Shown here piece after piece: positions 1 to 9,000 of a stretch of 18,425 nucleotides of DNA; within the stretch, counting starts at the first letter, position 1; each line of letters opens with the position of its first letter. Made by a program: the position numbers. The stretch comes from Bdellovibrionales bacterium (lineage in GTDB: Bacteria; Bdellovibrionota; Bdellovibrionia; Bdellovibrionales; JAMPXM01), in contig JAYUEN010000131.1 in the NCBI GenBank assembly GCA_043739185.1, positions 1 through 18,425 of the forward strand, given 5' to 3'.

Positions 1-3000
1 TCAATAGACTGACAGAGGACAGGGGGAACTTTTGCATTCAATGAGAGCAAGCTGCGGTCTCATTGACTTCTGAAAAGGTGAAAGCCTGAATAAAACCAAG
101 TACTATCTTGCGTGCTCATCGCCTTTGATTCTTTTTCCAAATACGAAAGTTCTGGTAATTTTGCCAAGCGAGGAACAAAGAGGGTCCAATAGGCGAGTAT
201 TCCACCTTTATGAAGCCGCTTGGCAATTTGTGAAAATAAAGACTGACTTTCTTCATCGCTTAAGTATTCAAAAATATCAGATAAATTCATAAAATCAAAA
301 GCGCTTGAACTGGTTTGTAAAAATTCTTCTAAAGAAGCTCTGAGGAAAGTAAGGCGATTGGGATTTTGGCGCAAGCTTGCTTGAATTTTTAAGTATTTTG
401 CTTCAACCCAAAGTGGATGTGAGGATTCATTCAGTAGCGGGCCACCACTTAAAAAATTAAAAAGATAGGGGTTCTTTGAAATGAGCTGCTTGCCAATCAA
501 ACTCATAAAATTCTTCATAAATTTTGAGCCTAAATCTTCTTGTTCGACAAACTTAAACTGTGATTCATGGCGACCTTGACGGGAAAACTCTGAGCGTGAG
601 AAAAATTGTCCTACTAGATTTGCGAGCGTACTCAAATCGGCTTGAGAAAATATTCTGAATTGCTCAGCAAGTGAGTCGGTATGTAACATTTTTAAATAGG
701 CCTCAGTGCTCCACAAAGACTTTAGTTTTTGGCGAAACTTTACAAAATAGAGGTCCAATCTACCTTGATAATGTAGCCCACCTTGAATGATTTTTTCTTT
801 TGAATCCCAAAAGTTTAAAGTCTCTCGACTGAGCGAAGACCGTATTTTCTGATATTGATTTAGGGCTTTTCGTTCGTCATATGCAAACATCAATTGTAAA
901 AAATCTTGGTGATTCAGGAGTTTGATGGCTTTAAGTTTGAGTTCAATCAAAGCAATTTGAGCAAAACTCAAATCAATTACGCAAATTTCTTCAGCGTCAG
1001 TTAAAAGGAGCGAAATGGCATTGTCGCCCGCACTTCCGATGCTTAATATTCGATTGGCAGAAGCAGGGTTCGGGGTTGAATTCTTTGGTAATAGGGCAAG
1101 CCCTGAAAAAATTTGTCTATAATCTTCCCATACAAATGAGTATCGCAGCTCTTGTAGATCCCAGGTTTCAAGTAAGGGTGATTTTTGTATTTCCATACTT
1201 GAAAATTAGCACAATGTTCTAGACTAGACTTTGATAAATTTCTGCTCAAGAAAAATCCAGTCAAAGGTCTAGAAGCCTTATCAAATGAAGCTATGTTAGC
1301 ATCGCAAGGATAGGCTTTTGACTAGTCCATTGCATCTCATGAGATGGCAGAGCAGGGGAGGAAAGTTTTGTTCAATTTTTCTAAAATCAAATCACCCGAA
1401 GCCATTGAGACGAAAGCCAATACTAAAACCAAAGCGAGGCATATATTAAAACGCTCAGTATATACTGAGATCGCCAGGCAACAACGCCTTGATCAACTTG
1501 AAAACTACGGAAGCTCTATGAGCGAAATAAGGAGTATGCGCCTTGATCCAACGGAGTTAAGAGGCAATATTGAATGTCTCATTGGCGCAGTCGAAATTCC
1601 CTTAGGCGCGGCCGGCCCACTTCTTCTGCGCGGTACAAATGGTGAGCGCGAAGCCTTTGCGCCAATTGCCACAACTGAAGGCGCGCTTTTGTCTTCAATC
1701 AATCGTGGTTGTCATGCACTCGGAATGTCCGGTGGAGTTTTTTCGCGCGCGCTCAAGCAACGTATGCAGCGTTCTCCGTTCTTTGATTGTGGCAACGCTG
1801 AACAATCTCTCATTCTCAAAAATTGGATATTACAAAGACAAAATCAAATTAAACTTAAGGCGAGACAATTTTCAAGTCATGCGATTTTACTTGAGGTCGA
1901 TTGCAGACTGATTCCGCCTTGTCTGCATATTCGGTTTGTATTTGAAACTGGCGATGCTTCTGGGCAAAATATGACAACTCTCTGCACTTGGAACCTCTGC
2001 AACTGGATCATCTCAGAGTTTTCAAAACAATACCCAAAGCTCATCAAGCACTTTTTAATTGACGGCAATCTCAGTACGGATAAAAAGCACTCCTATATTT
2101 CAGCTATTGTAGGCCGTGGGGTCGAAGTCATTGCCGATGCTCTTGTGCCTGAGTCCGTCATCAATAGAGTATTGGGATCAAACTCTGAAGATATAGCGCG
2201 CTATTTCTCGCAGTGCCAATCGAGTGCCGTTTTGACAGGTACTCACGGTTTTAATATCAATGTGGCAAATGTTATTGCAGGAATTTTCACAGCGACGGGG
2301 CAAGACATCGCATGCATTCATGAATCCAGTACGGCACAGTTGCACTTTGAAAAACGACCCGAAGGATTGTATTTGAGTTTGCTCCTGCCAAATCTTGTGA
2401 TTGGCACAGTTGGCGGTGGGACCGGATTACCTGCACAAAAGCAAATGCTAGAGTTTATGAATTGCCAAGGTGCCGGGCAAATTCAAAATTTTGCAGAATG
2501 CATTGCCGGCTTTTGTTTAGCACTCGAACTCTCGACAGCTTCGGCTTTGGCCGGCGGACAATTTGCCCTGGCTCATGAAAGATTGGGTCGAAATCGAGTC
2601 GAGCATTGGCTTAAAAAATCTGATTTGACAGCTAGTTTTTTTAATCATTTTTTAGCGCCCGACGAAGAATTGGGTCAAGTACTAGAAGCTTACGCAGATG
2701 AGGAATATCAATGCGAAGGCAGTTTAATAATGGATTTAACCTCTCAAATCAGTAAGCGTCCCTGCGGCCTTTGGCCCTTTGTGCTTCGCCGTTCGCGTTC
2801 GCAAAAGCCACAGAAGATTTTCTTAAAATCGAAAGTCTCTGACAAAGAATTATTGTTGGCTCTTGAGGTGATGGCAGGAATGAGTTCTCCGGGACTTGCT
2901 GAATTGCTTAAGAGTTCACAAAAGGACAATCCCTTTCAGCAATTTCATATTCGTGAAATTGAAATTGCTGAAATGCAAGTTCCGGCCCTGAAAAAAATAA

Positions 3001-6000: not shown

Positions 6001-9000
6001 GTTGGTCAGAACTAAAACCTAGTCCGCAAATTAAAAGTTTTGGCAATAAAATTCAAAAACAAGCTCAAACCGCATTGAGCTCAGAACTAGTCCTAAAGGG
6101 CCAAGCGTGTTTTCCTGGCATCGTAGAGGCCCGGGTGGTTGTCTTAACTTCGCCAAATGAAAATATAGATTTAAAAGGAAAAATTTTAGTAACTGAAAGA
6201 ACAGATCCTGGCTGGACACCGCTATTTCTACAATTGTCAGGATTACTCGTTGAGCGCGGCTCGCTATTGTCACATTCAGCTGTTGTCGCACGTGAATTAG
6301 GAATTCCAACAATTGTTGGTTTGAAAAATATTTGCCAATTGCTCAAGACAGATGATTTGGTTCACTTTGATGCTTCGACTGGTGAAGTGAGGCTTTTGCA
6401 ATCCAAAGATCAAGCATATCAAAAATCAGAAATAAGACATAAGCAAGAGCTTGAAGTTTGAGGGAGGCGATTTAAGTGGAAATACTCAATGAAAAAAACC
6501 TGACTCGAAATAATTTACGACCGAAGTCGCAGAGTTTGCAAAGTTTAAATGCGCAAGCTTTAACACGGACGTTTTCACTCGATGATATGGATTGGACCAA
6601 AAAAGTAGATCACAGCATCTCTTGGATGCCAGAGTCGATGCTTGCACTCACATTTCTTTCTTCTTATCGACTATTGAACAGTGATCAAAAATTAGCGATT
6701 AATCAGAAATATGCGCTTGCGATTTGTGAGCAATTCATTTGGTTTGAACAGGAATTATTATGCAGAGTAATTGCCCGCCTCATGCCGAAACTTCAAGATC
6801 AGACGCTTAAAAAGTGTCTTGAAAACTTCGCCAATGAAGAAACTAGGCATTCAGAGCTCTTTGGTAAATTGTTAAACCTAGCTGATCCTGAAACCTATAA
6901 AACTTCTCACATTGAAAGTCGTGACTTTAACTATTTTAAATTGAGTCTTGGGAGTAAATTATTTTTTGAAGCTCTCATTCGGTTTCCAAACTTATTTTTA
7001 GTTTGGGTGTGGCTTGCTATTTTTTTTGAAGAAAAGACGATTCATTTTAGCCAAATGTACAAAAAGTGCCAAGATAATATGGGCCATTCAAATGTAGATG
7101 CCCAGTTTGCAAAGGCCCATGCCCTACACATGATTGATGAAAGCCGACATCTTCAAATTGACCAATATTTATTAAAAGCTTTTTATGAGCCTAAATTCTT
7201 TTGGCAAAAAAGACTTTGCGCCAAACTTACACAATTGATTTTCAGGGCTTATAAATCACCGCGAAGAATTGCCAAGCGAATTTTAATAAAATTAGCTAAA
7301 GAACAAGCTGAGCATCAGCTTGTATACAAAAAACTTATCAATGAATTGCCAACTTTAAGAAAAAATCAGGCCTATCAGGAAGCAACCTATAGTCGCCAAG
7401 TAATGGGACGAACCTTGGGTAGTCTTGAACTCTATCCAGAAATGAACTGCGCATTGAAGGAACTTTCTCCTTCAATACGCAATTGAAAGTCATATTACAT
7501 CATCATCATCGAGAGAGGAATTCCGAGCATAAAGCCGCCCCAAGACTGCGACAGGATTCTTGAAATACGCTCAATAGACTTTGAGTCGTCGCTTACTCCG
7601 TCAAAGTATTTTGCATAGATTGCTTGTTGCCAATGCTCCGGGCGGCCCCTTCTGTAGTTGCGGTAAGATGCAATGCCACCTTCAACCGCTTTTGTTTCGT
7701 GAGTGCTTTCTTGATTGCAATAGGTGGGCAAAAAATCTTGAAGGTTCGCAGGCGGATCCGTATACAGACGTTTTAAGTGAACTACTAATTTTTCACTATT
7801 AATAACGGCACTGAAAATCTCTCCGTTTTCGATCTCTTTTGCGGCTTGATTTGATTTGTCAATTGTTGGGGGACTAATACCAACTGTTCCAAAGGCATTT
7901 CCAAATCCGGTATTCAATATTCGAGCAAAAGGAGCTACCGCTCTCGGATCAAATAAATTTTCTTGAAGATCGGTTTCGTTTTGGTGATCTCTGAGTGCTA
8001 CCCAAGAGAAATAGGCATTTTGAACCGATGTTTTCAAACTTTCATAACTATTTGATAAATAGCTATTTAATTTATCTTTACCAATTTCAGTTTTAAGACG
8101 AAAGAGATCTGGATGGGCTTTAATGGCATTGTATCTTTGTTCAGAGGTTGCATAGTCTGTTGAGAATGCGGCTTGAAAGCCGTAGACCGATGAAATTTTA
8201 TCGATACTATCAAACAGCCCTCTGAAGCTAAAGGCTTCCATTCCGTAGAGTCCACTCATAGATGCTTGTATGCTAGAAAGCAGCATAAATCTTTCGGATT
8301 CACCAATGCGAACCAAGCGGTCACGACTCGAAGTGAAATTGGCGCTACCATAAAGAATTTGGTTGTCCATAAAAACAGGTTTAGTTGAAAAATTCATGCT
8401 TGAAACGGTATCGTTAAATACGATCAATTGCGGAAGTACTTCCGCGCGCAACCAAGCTTGAAAAGTTGGGCCATCGACCATATCGCATCGACCTTTAATC
8501 CACTTTTTCGTATCCGATTTTTTAGAAGTAGATGGGAGTTCGCACCCATTGTCTTGATTTTTATAATAAGGCTCGACCATGAAATTAAATGCGGCCTTCC
8601 ATTGGGGAGTGGGAAGATAAACTTCAATTCCTGCGGCCATAAATCTCAAAATGGATACCGCCCATGCATGGGCCGCAATCGTTCTCTTATTACCGGCTTC
8701 AAAAATATTTCGCGATCGATAAATAAATCCGCGAAAAGGTTTGAGCATTAAGAGTTGAACAGCTAATAGCTTTGCATCTGGAGTCGCATCAAATTTACCG
8801 CTTTTAAATTCTTTTTCGAGATCATTGAGCAAATTGAAAATTTCTTCTGAGCTTTTTGCTCCAGGGATATCAGCCATTTTTTTACCATCTTTATATACTG
8901 AGCCGCCGATAAACGAACTTTCAATATTTCGAAAATTCTCGGTCAGTACGGTGTTCGGATCGCGGTCCGTGCTTGCAATGCTTCGCTCCGAATATTTTTT

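Follow-up and report, generated by a model that had tools for sequence, protein, structure and literature searches.

Class-I HMG-CoA reductases (HMGR, EC 1.1.1.34), represented by the enzymes of Methanothermococcus thermolithotrophicus (6hr7), human (1dq8) and Arabidopsis (7uli), share their fold, catalytic residues and NADPH motifs with a domain encoded in the 18,425 nt stretch of a Bdellovibrionales genome analyzed here (the window). This domain differs from class-I HMGR in that Lys735 (human numbering) is lost, Ser684 is replaced by Asp or Glu and His752 by Asn, the score lies under the cut-off of the NCBI HMGR model TIGR00533, and a kinase is fused to it. Mevalonate genes do not adjoin the fusion gene, and the genome's housekeeping HMGR belongs to class II. 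In ACAD10/ACAD11 (8v3v), too, a kinase of APH fold is joined to an enzyme that handles acyl-CoA, although the fusion differs from this precedent in its partner domain and in the sequence of its reactions.

Carboxylic-acid and fatty-acyl reductases have an adenylation-carrier-reductase (A-T-R) organization (NAD_binding_4), and relatives of the kinase are fused behind exactly such units in the same type of gene cassette. Here, however, the reductase is of HMGR type with an unrelated fold, and if there is a ligase, it mostly has a gene of its own. We know of no carboxylic-acid or fatty-acyl reductase that is fused to a kinase.

The product of the next gene has the ATP-grasp domain, the central substrate domain and the swivelling His in common with the rifampicin phosphotransferase RPH-Lm (5FBS/5HV1; PMC4844700) and the prodigiosin ligase PigC. 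For an RPH-like enzyme, conversion of ATP to AMP, Pi and the phosphorylated substrate is expected. The protein falls in the "distant clades" described in the RPH paper (PMC4844700).

Late archaeal phospholipid synthesis (DGGGP synthase, CarS, archaetidylserine synthase) is resembled by the UbiA-family, CarS-like and CDP-alcohol transferase genes in most cassettes of relatives, but all of these matches were weak (E 1e-5 to 1e-10) and the cassettes lack G1P dehydrogenase and GGGPS. The BtaA/BtaB betaine-lipid (DGTS) pathway is represented by a DUF3419/BtaA-family neighbor, which 8 of 81 loci have in place of the CarS/CDP-alcohol module. A BtaB methyltransferase was not identified in the window, and the acceptor lipid is probably not diacylglycerol.

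The reductase-kinase fusion

Open reading frames and Pfam confirmed that, as an earlier note on this DNA had described, a class-I HMGR domain is fused to an APH-type kinase and followed by a gene for a PEP-utilizing phosphotransferase (Table 1). The open frame of the fusion comprised 815 aa from the first ATG; the alternative start at 1368 matches the 807 aa given earlier. Pfam assigned HMG-CoA_red to aa 45-416 (E 2.9e-95) and APH to aa 628-743 (28.7 bits, cut-off 23.2), and EcKL was also matched. The fusion is common in databases, as had been claimed: 894 proteins matched aa 425-815 at E≤1e-3, with PF00368 and PF01636 on nearly all of the 120 listed, and a relative of the kinase domain is encoded in 564 species genomes. 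An exhaustive phmmer run gave 661 cluster representatives.

Table 1. Features of the window with position, strand and supporting evidence.
Feature	Position	Strand	Evidence
DUF3419 (BtaA/betaine-lipid-synthase family) protein, divergent from fusion; candidate head-group enzyme	60..1196	-	PF11899 E 2.1e-47, 162.6 bits
Fusion gene: HMGR-like thioester reductase and APH/EcKL-type kinase	1344..3791	+	Pfam, homologue searches
Class-I HMGR-like domain, aa 45-416	1476..2591	+	Pfam, best PDB match 6hr7, residue alignments
Kinase domain, aa 426-815	2619..3788	+	Alignments A1/A3, AlphaFold2 model, Foldseek
RPH/PigC-type phosphotransferase, 884 aa from TTG (882 aa from GTG 3813)	3807..6461	+	Pfam, NCBIfam, 5fbs alignment
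ATP-grasp domain, aa 83-299	4053..4703	+	Pfam PPDK_N, E 1.8e-44
Swivelling phospho-His domain, aa 790-859	6174..6383	+	Pfam PEP-utilizers, E 1.3e-21
Swivel His823	6273..6275	+	Aligned with His of RPH-Lm
AurF-like di-iron oxygenase/desaturase-like protein, third gene of the operon	6476..7486	+	PF11583 E 4.4e-12
631-aa protein, cluster cl41, one N-terminal hydrophobic segment	7495..9390	-	Hydropathy; recurs in relatives' cassette
MMPL/HAE3-type RND transporter, candidate lipid exporter	9352..11544	+	Pfam MMPL, TIGR00921
Membrane-anchored alpha/beta hydrolase; cassette membership uncertain	11560..12492	+	Pfam Abhydrolase_1 E 2.8e-27

The best PDB match of the HMGR-like domain was the archaeal HMGR 6hr7 (E 1.5e-70), and the domain was aligned residue by residue to this protein and to the Arabidopsis and human HMGRs. 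Glu112, Lys247, Asp321 and His411 of the catalytic site are retained, and so are the motifs DAxGxN and GTVGGGT. Since these are shared with class-I HMGR, the domain presumably catalyzes the same four-electron reduction of a thioester to an alcohol. The equivalents of Arg590, Asp690, Lys691, Lys692 and Asn755 were invariant in the family counts. Human Ser684, Lys735 and His752 correspond to Asp240, Ser289 and Asn306 in the copy of the window. All 73 fused proteins had Glu or Asp at the Ser684 position and Asn at the His752 position, and 58 of the 73 had Gln or Asn at the Lys735 position. Stand-alone relatives were likewise acidic at the Ser684 position (120/120) and had Asn at the His752 position (112/120).

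According to PMC9500038, human Lys735 forms a salt bridge with the HMG carboxylate. HMG-CoA is unlikely to be the substrate, because this Lys is lost and the fusion protein reached only 269.8 bits with TIGR00533 (cut-off 441.8). The score and the changes at all three positions speak against the "HMG-CoA-like" substrate that had been suggested and against a parallel mevalonate route. That the genome has a second HMGR gene, besides the one in a housekeeping mevalonate operon, was confirmed: a 453-aa open frame on another contig (C398) has class-II motifs and adjoins mevalonate-pathway-like genes.

In alignments A1 and A3, the kinase motifs Lys495/Lys497, His683-x-Asp685-x4-Asn690 and Asp706-Trp-Glu fell in columns that were invariant or nearly so. 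The AlphaFold2 model of the domain had a pLDDT of 95.9, and Foldseek retrieved APH, choline kinase, NahK and other small-molecule kinases with it (probability 1.0, TM 0.4-0.55); ethanolamine, corramycin and amicoumacin kinases were also among the structural neighbors. Profile matches to the PDB were weak (best E 2.4e-5), including that to 8v3v (E 1.6e-4).

The kinase domain was also found behind A-T-HMGR (P0210), A-T-SDR (P0141, L093, L096) and T-SDR (L102, P0200) reductases; pieces resembling DIP2/FAAL are present in the fused A domains. A Bacteroidia homologue (P0211) has a thymidylate-kinase-like P-loop domain at its N-terminus. The desaturase/RPH-like/methyltransferase/PlsC cassette of loci L093 and L102 recurs in L204, L206 and L207, which are HMGR-kinase loci. 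Since cassettes of one kind can thus have the same kinase fused to the non-homologous thioester-reductase (SDR "R") domain, we concluded that the module leads from an activated acid through an alcohol to a phosphate ester, and that the HMGR-like domain holds the place of the R domain. The earlier suggestion that a thioester is reduced to an alcohol and then phosphorylated by non-GHMP kinases fits these adenylation-carrier-HMGR-kinase and adenylation-carrier-SDR-kinase architectures.

The RPH-like gene and the lipid cassettes

RPH-Lm (5fbs) matched the RPH-like enzyme with E 3.6e-62 and 214 bits, but the alignment extended only over aa 83-294 and 557-864; the central domain is divergent, and aa ~300-556 were unaligned. 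The enzyme stayed far under the RPH, PigC and RedH cut-offs (RIF_Ptrans_rph, 252.9 bits against 999; PigC and RedH ligase models, partial matches) and also under that of NF004883 (675 bits against 1063). Unlike true PEP synthase, it has no C-terminal barrel (PEP-utilizers_C in Pfam).

The gene starts 15 nt after the fusion gene and is followed after 14 nt by the AurF-like gene, both being preceded by a Shine-Dalgarno-like GGGAG(G). Of the 75 loci in which a fusion gene was called, 62 also held an RPH-like relative, as did all 41 loci with at least 6 kb upstream and at least 8 kb downstream; in 54 of 73 it lay directly downstream on the same strand. The tree placed 24 of the 25 RPH-like rows adjoining fusions in one clade (SH-aLRT 96), with 4 label changes compared to a shuffled mean of 10.6. 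The pair is co-inherited across phyla and travels together in distant bacteria even more strongly than the earlier note had stated. Its view of the pair as one two-gene unit did not hold, because the dependence is one-way. In a sample of 401 genomes from the phylum of the window, the kinase domain occurred in 16 and a homologue of the second gene in 151 (about nine times commoner), and 137 genomes had the RPH-like gene without the fusion. When ten of these 137 were inspected, the RPH-like gene adjoined genes for a UbiA-like protein and for an acid ligase in all ten, and no reductase accompanied it in nine. The substrate of the RPH-like enzyme therefore cannot generally be the product of the fusion.

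The wider setting of the pair was a lipid cassette of 6-10 genes with a UbiA/DGGGPS-like gene, a fatty-acid ligase, a GNAT, an MMPL exporter and a head-group module, either CarS plus CDP-alcohol transferase (often fused) or a BtaA-like enzyme. The 41 complete loci held an RPH-like gene (41), a ligase (37), CarS/CDP-alcohol transferase (35), a UbiA-like gene (34) and a GNAT (33). An MMPL gene (cl5 or cl25) was present in 34 of 75 loci, and that of Atopomonas also matched HpnN weakly. The head-group modules exclude each other, as the DUF3419 cluster cl11 occurred together with CarS/CDP-alcohol transferase in 0 of 75 loci. The best PDB match of the UbiA-like profile was DGGGP synthase (E 7e-9), the CDP-alcohol transferase matched archaetidylserine/PssA models, and the ligase passed NF006754 ("fatty acid CoA ligase family"); in the closest relatives the ligases are A-T didomains. 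One cassette contained phosphatidylserine decarboxylase, and alpha/beta hydrolases were found within related cassettes or fused to their ligases. Cassette type C has a PlsC-type acyltransferase and, in the annotated loci, no UbiA-like gene. None of the annotated cassettes contained HMG-CoA synthase or diphosphomevalonate decarboxylase, and the cassettes had no PKS or NRPS core genes. Lipid enzymes were the consistent neighbors throughout the 81 loci, which come from several phyla. In gammaproteobacterial loci, L034 for example, we saw the same gene order as the earlier note gives for Photorhabdus khanii, where the pair lies between UbiA and GNAT, acyl-AMP ligase, CDP-alcohol phosphatidyltransferase and CarS-like genes.

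In the window, the BtaA-like gene is followed by the reductase-kinase, RPH-like and di-iron oxygenase genes and then by those for the 631-aa protein and the MMPL transporter. The DUF3419, AurF-like, MMPL and hydrolase neighbors reported before were all recovered by Pfam. DUF3419 proteins appear as putative betaine lipid synthases in PMC10685587. The AurF-like protein also weakly matches other di-iron families; L023, L024 and L055 have a member of its cluster (cl18) behind the pair, and G373 has an AurF-like gene in this place. The 631-aa protein had no Pfam or NCBIfam match and only hypothetical proteins as Atlas matches, commonest in Bdellovibrionota, and its cluster adjoins the cassette in L024 and G373. 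The hydrolase had no orthologue cluster in common with other loci. The window lacks UbiA-like, CarS-like and CDP-alcohol transferase genes; neither UbiA nor GNAT of the cassette type turned up in the assembly, which is fragmented into 540 contigs, and no CarS in the genome, and its ligases are only generic (24-37% identity). In this genome the pathway may lack steps or be of another kind, or contig breaks may divide it.

A proposed pathway and its alternatives

We propose a pathway of which the substrates, the products and every chemical step are what we infer. An acid, probably fatty or hydroxy-fatty, would be activated by thioester linkage to CoA or a carrier protein, and the HMGR-like domain would reduce it to a primary alcohol with 2 NAD(P)H, as the architectures and active-site residues suggest. 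The fused APH-type kinase would then phosphorylate that alcohol with ATP. In the third and least certain step, the RPH-type enzyme would convert ATP to AMP and Pi and transfer a second phosphoryl group via His823 to the same intermediate of the pathway. It is a tentative idea that this yields the diphosphate of the same alcohol as the donor for the UbiA/DGGGPS-like transferase of most cassettes; that another hydroxyl or the acceptor lipid is phosphorylated is held just as tentatively. The diphosphate idea is weakened for cassette type C, because a UbiA-like gene is missing there, and saturated alkyl diphosphates are not known as UbiA substrates. Downstream enzymes would provide a second chain by UbiA-like prenyl or alkyl transfer or by PlsC or GNAT acyl transfer, and the polar head would come from the CarS-like protein and CDP-alcohol (serine-type) transferase or from the BtaA-like enzyme, before export of the lipid by the MMPL pump. 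We found no paper on the product.

This lipid pathway is supported by the intact domains (catalytic E/K/D/H, NADPH motifs, kinase motifs, swivel His) and by the swap of HMGR for SDR before the same kinase, as well as by the lipid enzymes around the pair, the mutual exclusion of the head-group modules and the clustering of fusion-adjoining RPH-like proteins in the tree. Evidence against it includes the RPH-like genes that occur without the fusion and the lack of a cassette-type UbiA or GNAT in this assembly. The HMGR pocket normally accepts a small polar acyl group, which counts against a lipid tail as substrate, and the invariant Asp or Glu in place of Ser684 could indicate a polar or cationic substrate rather than a lipid. 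The pair may act on the head group or backbone instead: a small hydroxy- or amino-acyl thioester, or a GNAT-made, ligase-activated N-acyl amino acid, would become an amino-alcohol or diol phosphate that replaces glycerol phosphate or phosphoethanolamine and is then prenylated or acylated and CMP-activated. The HMGR fold suits 3-hydroxyacyl groups that are short and polar, its ligands of the 3-OH are retained while Ser684 gives way to an acidic residue, and the kinase has choline and ethanolamine kinases as structural neighbors. Moreover, the combination of GNAT, DGGGPS-like, CarS-like and serine-type CDP-alcohol transferase genes is similar to the way in which archaea assemble phospholipids on a phosphorylated backbone, and the PlsC-type acyltransferase of cassette type C requires a lyso-phosphatidate-like acceptor. 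We nevertheless regard a head-group role as unlikely: the ligase passes a fatty-acid-CoA-ligase model, the fused A domains have DIP2/FAAL-like pieces, and the RPH-like enzyme would be left without a role.

An alternative lower mevalonate pathway appears improbable. HMG-CoA would be reduced to mevalonate, the APH-type kinase would make the 5-phosphate and the RPH-type enzyme the diphosphate, replacing the GHMP kinases and feeding the UbiA-type prenyltransferase. The class-I fold with its four catalytic residues, the five invariant equivalents from Arg590 to Asn755, two successive kinases that mirror MVK and PMK, the P-loop domain of P0211 and a prenyltransferase-family gene as the commonest neighbor all agree with it. 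Against it stand the family-wide changes at Lys735, Ser684 and His752, the score under the TIGR00533 cut-off, the lack of HMG-CoA synthase and diphosphomevalonate decarboxylase in the annotated cassettes, the class-II HMGR operon already in the genome, and the adenylation and carrier domains of the reductase-swapped forms, which load free acids and not HMG-CoA. A resistance, detoxification or secondary-metabolite tailoring device, with kinases that inactivate or mature a small-molecule antibiotic and incidental lipid-looking neighbors, would suit families best known from antibiotic resistance (APH, RPH), the 214 bits to RPH-Lm, the corramycin and amicoumacin kinases among the fold neighbors and the partial PigC and RedH matches, but is very improbable given the low RIF_Ptrans_rph score, the unaligned rifampicin-binding domain, the consistent lipid enzymes, the missing PKS and NRPS core genes and the statement, in the RPH paper (PMC4844700), that RPH proteins of distant clades give no resistance to rifampicin.

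With moderate confidence, we favor the lipid pathway, in which the pair would represent consecutive enzymes of an uncharacterized, widespread membrane-lipid cassette and not a second mevalonate route. The copy in the window is a reduced version of this cassette.

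The fusion gene, its partner and their neighbours

The window is contig C131 (18,425 bp) of an assembly of 4.85 Mb in 540 contigs that is 97.65% complete. ORF calling and Pfam bore out the domain limits of the reductase-kinase fusion and of the following gene related to rifampicin phosphotransferase (RPH), both described in the earlier note, allowing for a difference of 8 codons in the start. The neighbours it had named, a DUF3419 protein, an AurF-like protein, an MMPL protein and a hydrolase, were likewise recovered by Pfam and NCBIfam. A gap of 15 nt parts the fusion gene from the RPH-like gene and one of 14 nt the latter from the AurF-like gene, and a GGGAG(G) string lies ahead of each start. 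A scan of positions 1000-12800 for promoters and terminators stayed at chance level (24 vs 24.7 and 13 vs 11.3).

Features of the window, with positions along the contig
Feature	Position	Strand	Description
DUF3419 (BtaA-family) gene	60-1196		upstream of the fusion, divergent
Fusion gene	1344-3791	+	815 aa; Pfam HMG-CoA_red aa 45-416 (E 2.9e-95), APH 628-743, EcKL
RPH-like gene	3807-6461	+	884 aa; Pfam PPDK_N 83-299, mobile PEP-utilizers domain 790-859
AurF-like di-iron protein gene	6476-7486		third gene, after the fusion and RPH-like genes
631-aa protein		-	downstream; no assigned family
MMPL/HAE3 transporter			downstream of the 631-aa gene
Alpha/beta hydrolase			follows the transporter
392-aa protein	12797-13975	+	hydrophobic, lipoprotein-like N-terminal start; no family match
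DUF1456 protein	16317-16889	-	far contig end; unrelated to the cassette
HepT-like/NTase_sub_bind protein	17335-17742	-	far contig end; possible toxin-antitoxin component, unrelated to the cassette

The DUF3419 protein scored 162.6 bits against its Pfam domain and had no NCBIfam match. By this domain it is a putative BtaA-type betaine-lipid synthase and a candidate to move the 3-amino-3-carboxypropyl group from SAM onto a hydroxyl of a lipid. For the 631-aa and 392-aa proteins, neither the Atlas nor relaxed Pfam searches suggested a function.

A PF00368 search detected two genes in the assembly. The second is located on contig C398 (34719-35789, locus L002) in a 453-aa open frame with the class-II motifs ENVIGY, DAMGAN and GNDWRA, and the flanking frames resemble type-2 IPP isomerase and GHMP kinase by sequence reading rather than by profile match. 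The housekeeping mevalonate-type operon of the earlier note, with this class-II HMG-CoA reductase (HMGR), lies away from the window. HMGR was present in 70 of 121 sampled genomes of the phylum, with two matches in fusion carriers, and the stand-alone HMGRs inspected in this sample were of class II.

Catalytic residues and substrate pocket of the three domains

The reductase domain of the fusion was closest to the archaeal class-I HMGR 6hr7 (E 1.5e-70). In residue alignments with 6hr7, Arabidopsis HMG1 and human HMGR, Glu112, Lys247, Asp321 and His411 align to the catalytic Glu559, Lys691, Asp767 and His866 (human numbering). The equivalents of Arg590, Asp690, Lys692 and Asn755 and the DAxGxN and GTVGGGT motifs are also kept. 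The catalytic residues are conserved across 73 fused proteins from species genomes; His411 was found in 71 of them, and the remaining two are gapped by a 560-aa cut. Three positions of the pocket are changed in the window's domain: Ser684 to Asp240, Lys735 to Ser289 and His752 to Asn. Ser, Lys and His occupy these positions in all three solved enzymes, which were the only canonical class-I reference. The 73 fused proteins have Asn at 752 without exception and an acidic residue at 684 (Glu in 64, Asp in 9); at 735 most have Gln (37) or Asn (21), with His in 5, Arg in 3, Ser in 1 and another residue in 6. The 120 best stand-alone relatives (362-447 aa; from Streptomyces, Pseudomonas, Nocardia, Oligoflexus and others) all have Glu or Asp at 684, and 112 have Asn at 752.

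In HMGR the HMG carboxylate is bound by Lys735, through a salt bridge, and by Ser684 (PMC9500038). The window's domain reached 269.8 bits with the NCBI HMGR equivalog TIGR00533, below the cut-off of 441.8, and no other mevalonate-pathway genes were found in the window (Pfam) or in the annotated cassettes. The domain probably retains the conversion of a thioester to an alcohol, but given the family-wide pocket changes and the score below the cut-off, HMG-CoA is an unlikely substrate. The HMG-CoA-like thioester proposed in the earlier note is not supported by a pocket that has lost the carboxylate ligand and is acidic at 684 throughout the family.

A further HMGR-like group of about 400-490 aa occurs in Actinomycetota (L148, L151, L149-L154). 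It has Glu, Asp or Ala at 684 and Gln at 735, keeps His752, and in some members has GND for GQD. Seven of 301 genomes in the Actinomycetota sample matched, including the centre genome G401, which has a fusion; Streptomyces-type stand-alone HMGR-like genes were absent from this sample.

The kinase domain passed the Pfam APH cut-off (28.7 vs 23.2 bits). Alignment columns for its beta-3 Lys, its HxDxxxxN loop and its DWE metal site either do not vary or are conserved to at least 90%. An AF2 model (pLDDT 95.9) has a bilobal kinase fold, which Foldseek matched with probability 1.0 to small-molecule kinases, among them APH, choline kinase and NahK, at TM values of just 0.4-0.55. By sequence profile, the best solved relatives reached only E 2.4e-5. 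The domain has 661 cluster representatives among 1.84 billion proteins. It is a member of the APH/eukaryotic-like superfamily and forms a distinct subfamily without a close known one.

The RPH-like protein carries the domains of the RPH/PEP-synthase-type dikinase superfamily (PPDK_N E 1.8e-44, PEP-utilizers E 1.3e-21). Its match to RPH-Lm (E 3.6e-62) is limited to the ATP-grasp domain and the C-terminal third, where His823 lines up with the swivel-domain His, while the central substrate-binding part (aa ~300-556) did not align. It remained below the NCBIfam cut-offs for RPH, PigC, RedH and PEP synthase. A rifamycin phosphotransferase was rejected, as the rifampicin-binding region is not aligned and the scores were too low (RIF_Ptrans_rph 252.9 < 999, also 176.8 < 1700). 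A PEP synthase or pyruvate, water dikinase was rejected as well, since the protein has no PF02896 (PEP-utilizers_C) barrel and scored below TIGR01418 (185.9 < 739.75) and NF004883 (675 < 1063). PMC4844700 describes distant clades of the RPH superfamily with substrates yet to be assigned, and the window's protein belongs to these clades. The only longer fusion of the RPH-like protein was an arthropod protein. In the acidobacterial locus L093 (620-4090) it is split into an 805-aa gene, which clusters with full-length RPH-like proteins, and a separate 302-aa gene; a Pfam run on this half alone detected only the swivelling His domain.

Distribution of the pair and composition of the cassettes

A pattern scan with the kinase-domain alignment found relatives in 564 species genomes. 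The best related loci were from Bdellovibrionales MAGs, which makes Bdellovibrionota the probable phylum of the window's organism. We kept the 80 best loci, in which some Gammaproteobacteria are over-represented because the ranking was by similarity to a Bdellovibrionota-centred alignment. ORFs were called in these loci and in the window by the longest-ORF rule, and the 977 proteins were clustered.

Recurrent protein clusters in 81 loci (window included; clusters depend on the threshold)
Cluster	Loci	Remarks
Fusion	75/81	
RPH-like	66/81	
UbiA-family protein	57/81	passes NF004617; best solved relative DGGGP synthase, E 7e-9
AMP-binding ligase	53/81	passes NF006754 'fatty acid CoA ligase family'; related to OleC
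~376-aa GNAT-like protein	51/81	GNAT call from Atlas, feature score 0.97
MMPL	32/81	
CarS-like	22/81	
CDP-alcohol phosphatidyltransferase	20/81	matches archaetidylserine-synthase and PssA models
427-aa unknown	18/81	
CarS-like/CDP-alcohol phosphatidyltransferase fusion	16/81	
LolA-like	16/81	
DUF3419	8/81	
AurF-like	4/81	

Six loci had no called fusion. L031 is truncated, and in L093, L096 and L102 the reductase is swapped. L041 is GC-rich and has a 1725-aa ORF in another frame than the kinase match, which hides the fusion; L089 is probably a similar artefact, as judged solely from its large antisense ORFs (GC-rich). Because such long ORFs hid the fusion in L041 and probably in L089, the counts of missing genes in the locus tallies are lower bounds. 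Of the loci, 41 extend 6 kb or more upstream and 8 kb or more downstream; among these we found the RPH-like gene in 41, the ligase in 37, CarS or CDP-alcohol phosphatidyltransferase genes in 35, the UbiA-like gene in 34, GNAT in 33 and DUF3419 in 3. In 54 of 73 cases the RPH-like gene follows the fusion directly and in the same orientation; the median spacing, from the ORFs as called, is -4 nt. CarS or CDP-alcohol phosphatidyltransferase genes and DUF3419 occurred together in none of 75 loci.

The cassettes could be grouped into three types. In type A, the usual order in Gammaproteobacteria is LolA-like, unknown, MMPL, UbiA-like, fusion, RPH-like, GNAT, ligase, CDP-alcohol phosphatidyltransferase and CarS-like, which includes a phospho-head-group module. 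Type B occurs in Bdellovibrionales and some others (L023, L024, L055, genome G373, and the window) and comprises the fusion, RPH-like and AurF-like genes with ligase, UbiA-like, GNAT and MMPL genes, DUF3419 replacing the CarS and CDP-alcohol phosphatidyltransferase genes. Type C, from other Bdellovibrionota families, has the order desaturase (a fatty-acid desaturase), fusion, CarS-like, RPH-like, unknown, methyltransferase, PlsC-type acyltransferase, 4HBT thioesterase and desaturase, and lacks both the UbiA-like gene and the ligase. One cassette (L073:13634-15211) contains a gene for a 526-aa phosphatidylserine-decarboxylase-domain protein, which suggests that a serine head group is converted to ethanolamine in its product. 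Cultured carriers include Atopomonas hussainii JCM 19513, Fluviicoccus keumensis DSM 105135, Thalassolituus, Hahella, strain HdN1 and Serratia fonticola.

Seven gammaproteobacterial fusions of 940-981 aa (L044, L052, L064, L065, L076, L088, L090) have an extra N-terminal domain of about 100-130 aa with the conserved motif DVSKSH(L/I)CV, which is absent from the window's protein. A formyltransferase-like protein (cluster 82, ~246 aa; Formyl_trans_N, ArnA/Fmt-like matches) recurs beside the ligase in L189, L193-L196, L091 and L094, in cassettes with DUF3419 or a CarS fusion.

The full type-B set is seen in G373, a relative from the same taxonomic order: unknown protein, fusion, RPH-like, AurF-like; MMPL, ligase; GNAT, UbiA-like; DUF3419. 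In the window, MMPL is followed by the hydrolase, the secreted-looking 392-aa protein and MetRS in place of the gene set of G373, and the 392-aa gene occupies the slot where relatives carry the ligase, GNAT and UbiA-like genes. The whole assembly had no match to the L024 UbiA-like protein, the L024 GNAT or the UbiA-like profile, no CarS-like gene was found in it, and the L024 and L023 ligases matched only generic ligases (24-37% identity). Its four PF01040 (UbiA-family) matches are all in other contexts, and neither blastx of these loci against cassette proteins nor a profile search gave a match. Since the contig stops 59 bp past the DUF3419 gene, the absent cassette genes may be lost or merely unassembled.

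Among 401 genomes of the phylum, the kinase domain is present in 16, the window's own included, and an RPH-like homologue (E<=1e-40) in 151. Both genes were found in 14 of the 16; the exceptions, G386 and G398, are 87% and 75% complete and have their fusions on short contigs. Since 14 of 16 fusion genomes have both genes, yet 137 have the RPH-like gene alone, the dependence is one-way: a fusion requires the RPH-like gene, which for its part can do without a fusion. We inspected 20 kb in each of 10 of the 137 genomes. In these 10 loci the RPH-like gene keeps its UbiA-like neighbour (10 of 10, adjacent in 9) and the ligase (10 of 10), and GNAT, DUF3419, formyltransferase-like, P450 and AurF-like genes are variable. 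One of these loci, L192 (13752-16831), has two other reductases upstream of the ligase. One (678 aa) resembles the PigE N-terminal part and cyanobacterial acyl-ACP reductase, and the other is a 349-aa stand-alone NAD_binding_4 thioester-reductase-like protein. PigE and the RPH-like PigC act together in prodigiosin synthesis.

A quick IQ-TREE analysis comprised 40 RPH-like proteins, 24 of the 66 cluster members (taken for taxonomic spread) and 16 from phylum regions. Of the 25 fusion-adjacent rows, 24 fell into one clade (SH-aLRT 96), with the fusion-less proteins in a sister clade. The fusion label changed 4 times on the tree; shuffled labels changed 10.6 times on average, and none of 500 shuffles gave 4 changes or fewer, with related rows not independent and branches long. 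The earlier note had regarded the pair as one unit. Its co-inheritance was supported by all 41 complete loci, but a self-contained two-gene unit is at odds with the 137 genomes that have the RPH-like gene without the fusion.

Domain displacement and a possible lipid pathway

The kinase domain also occurs in other architectures. Database protein P0210 (1454 aa) consists of AMP-binding, carrier (PP-binding), HMGR and kinase domains. In P0141 (1486 aa), L093 (1556 aa, Acidobacteriota) and L096 (1573 aa) the AMP-binding and carrier domains are followed by an NAD_binding_4 thioester reductase and the kinase, an architecture found for P0141 on contigs of up to 7.3 Mb. L102 (904 aa, Planctomycetota) and P0200 have carrier, reductase and kinase, and the separate ligase of L024 and L055 is an adenylation-carrier didomain. 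L093 and L102 lie in type-C cassettes (desaturase, RPH-like, methyltransferase, PlsC), and their RPH-like proteins are sister to those of type-C loci with the HMGR-kinase (SH-aLRT 100). Two unrelated reductase folds therefore occupy one slot between an acid-activating or carrier unit and the kinase, and for this reason we read the module as one that would convert an activated acid to an alcohol and then to a phosphate ester. This displacement is the strongest functional clue. P0211 (Bacteroidia) has an extra N-terminal thymidylate-kinase-like P-loop domain before the HMGR-kinase; a metagenome scan found no relatives of it. Conceivably, a P-loop kinase could stand in for the RPH-like enzyme there.

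From sequence we could establish intact catalytic sets in all three enzymatic domains, the altered HMG pocket, operon-like spacing, co-inheritance, the lipid-enzyme context and the domain displacement. The catalytic steps that we infer are reduction, phosphorylation by the kinase domain and a second phosphorylation by the RPH-like enzyme. For this last step, a tentative possibility is that the RPH-like enzyme turns the alcohol into a diphosphate, which the UbiA-like enzyme would take as its donor. The serial arrangement of two kinases, the adjacency of UbiA and the P-loop fusion speak for such a donor. Type C without UbiA speaks against it, as do the cassettes that lack a fusion and the fact that a non-allylic donor would be chemically unusual. 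To a similar, tentative degree, the enzyme might instead phosphorylate another hydroxyl or an acceptor lipid.

Speculatively, a 3-hydroxyacyl thioester would be an attractive substrate of the reductase: the ligands of the 3-OH of HMG are kept but that of the carboxylate is not, and the ligase has a relative in OleC, which takes beta-hydroxy acids. It would yield a 1,3-diol phosphate, a glycerol-phosphate-like backbone for PlsC or DGGGPS-like enzymes. A reading that joins all parts is that the reductase-kinase turns a (hydroxy-)fatty acid thioester into a long-chain diol or alkyl phosphate, which would replace glycerol phosphate in a glycerol-free phospholipid or betaine lipid. The backbone would be etherified by the DGGGPS-like enzyme or acylated by PlsC or GNAT, the head group would come from archaeal-type CarS with the serine transferase or from the BtaA-like protein, the RPH-type dikinase would provide a second, energy-rich phosphorylation, and the MMPL pump would export the product. 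As a whole, with all these steps, this reading is rather improbable. We know of no lipid pathway that uses an energy-rich second phosphorylation of this kind.

The full-text literature searched, with most subscription journals outside its reach, contained nothing on the fusion or the cassette. The sole recurrent match, PMC12419801, mentions HMGR with a GHMP kinase in a different context. It is a real possibility that the whole pathway is new, while its parts (HMGR, thioester reductase-kinase logic, RPH-type dikinase, lipid gene cluster) are of known kinds. HMGR is among the most studied enzymes in biology, and we found no role of it outside mevalonate metabolism in the literature searched. The subfamily with the altered pocket has hundreds of representatives, fused and stand-alone, in Pseudomonadota, Bdellovibrionota, Myxococcota, Spirochaetota, Actinomycetota and others, and appears to work as a general-purpose thioester reductase permanently coupled to a kinase. 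Database names such as 'HMG-CoA reductase', 'phosphotransferase' and 'PEP synthase' mislead pathway reconstruction here, for example towards false mevalonate pathways.

Since bacterial lipid enzymes are combined in the cassette with archaeal-looking ones and an exporter, it probably makes an envelope lipid that has yet to be described, and the cultured carriers open the question to direct testing. The RPH-like partner would supply the first physiological role for large clades of the RPH superfamily with unknown substrates. If the joint reading is true, more than 500 bacterial species would share a membrane-lipid pathway of a new class, and the HMGR fold would have its first function outside mevalonate metabolism.
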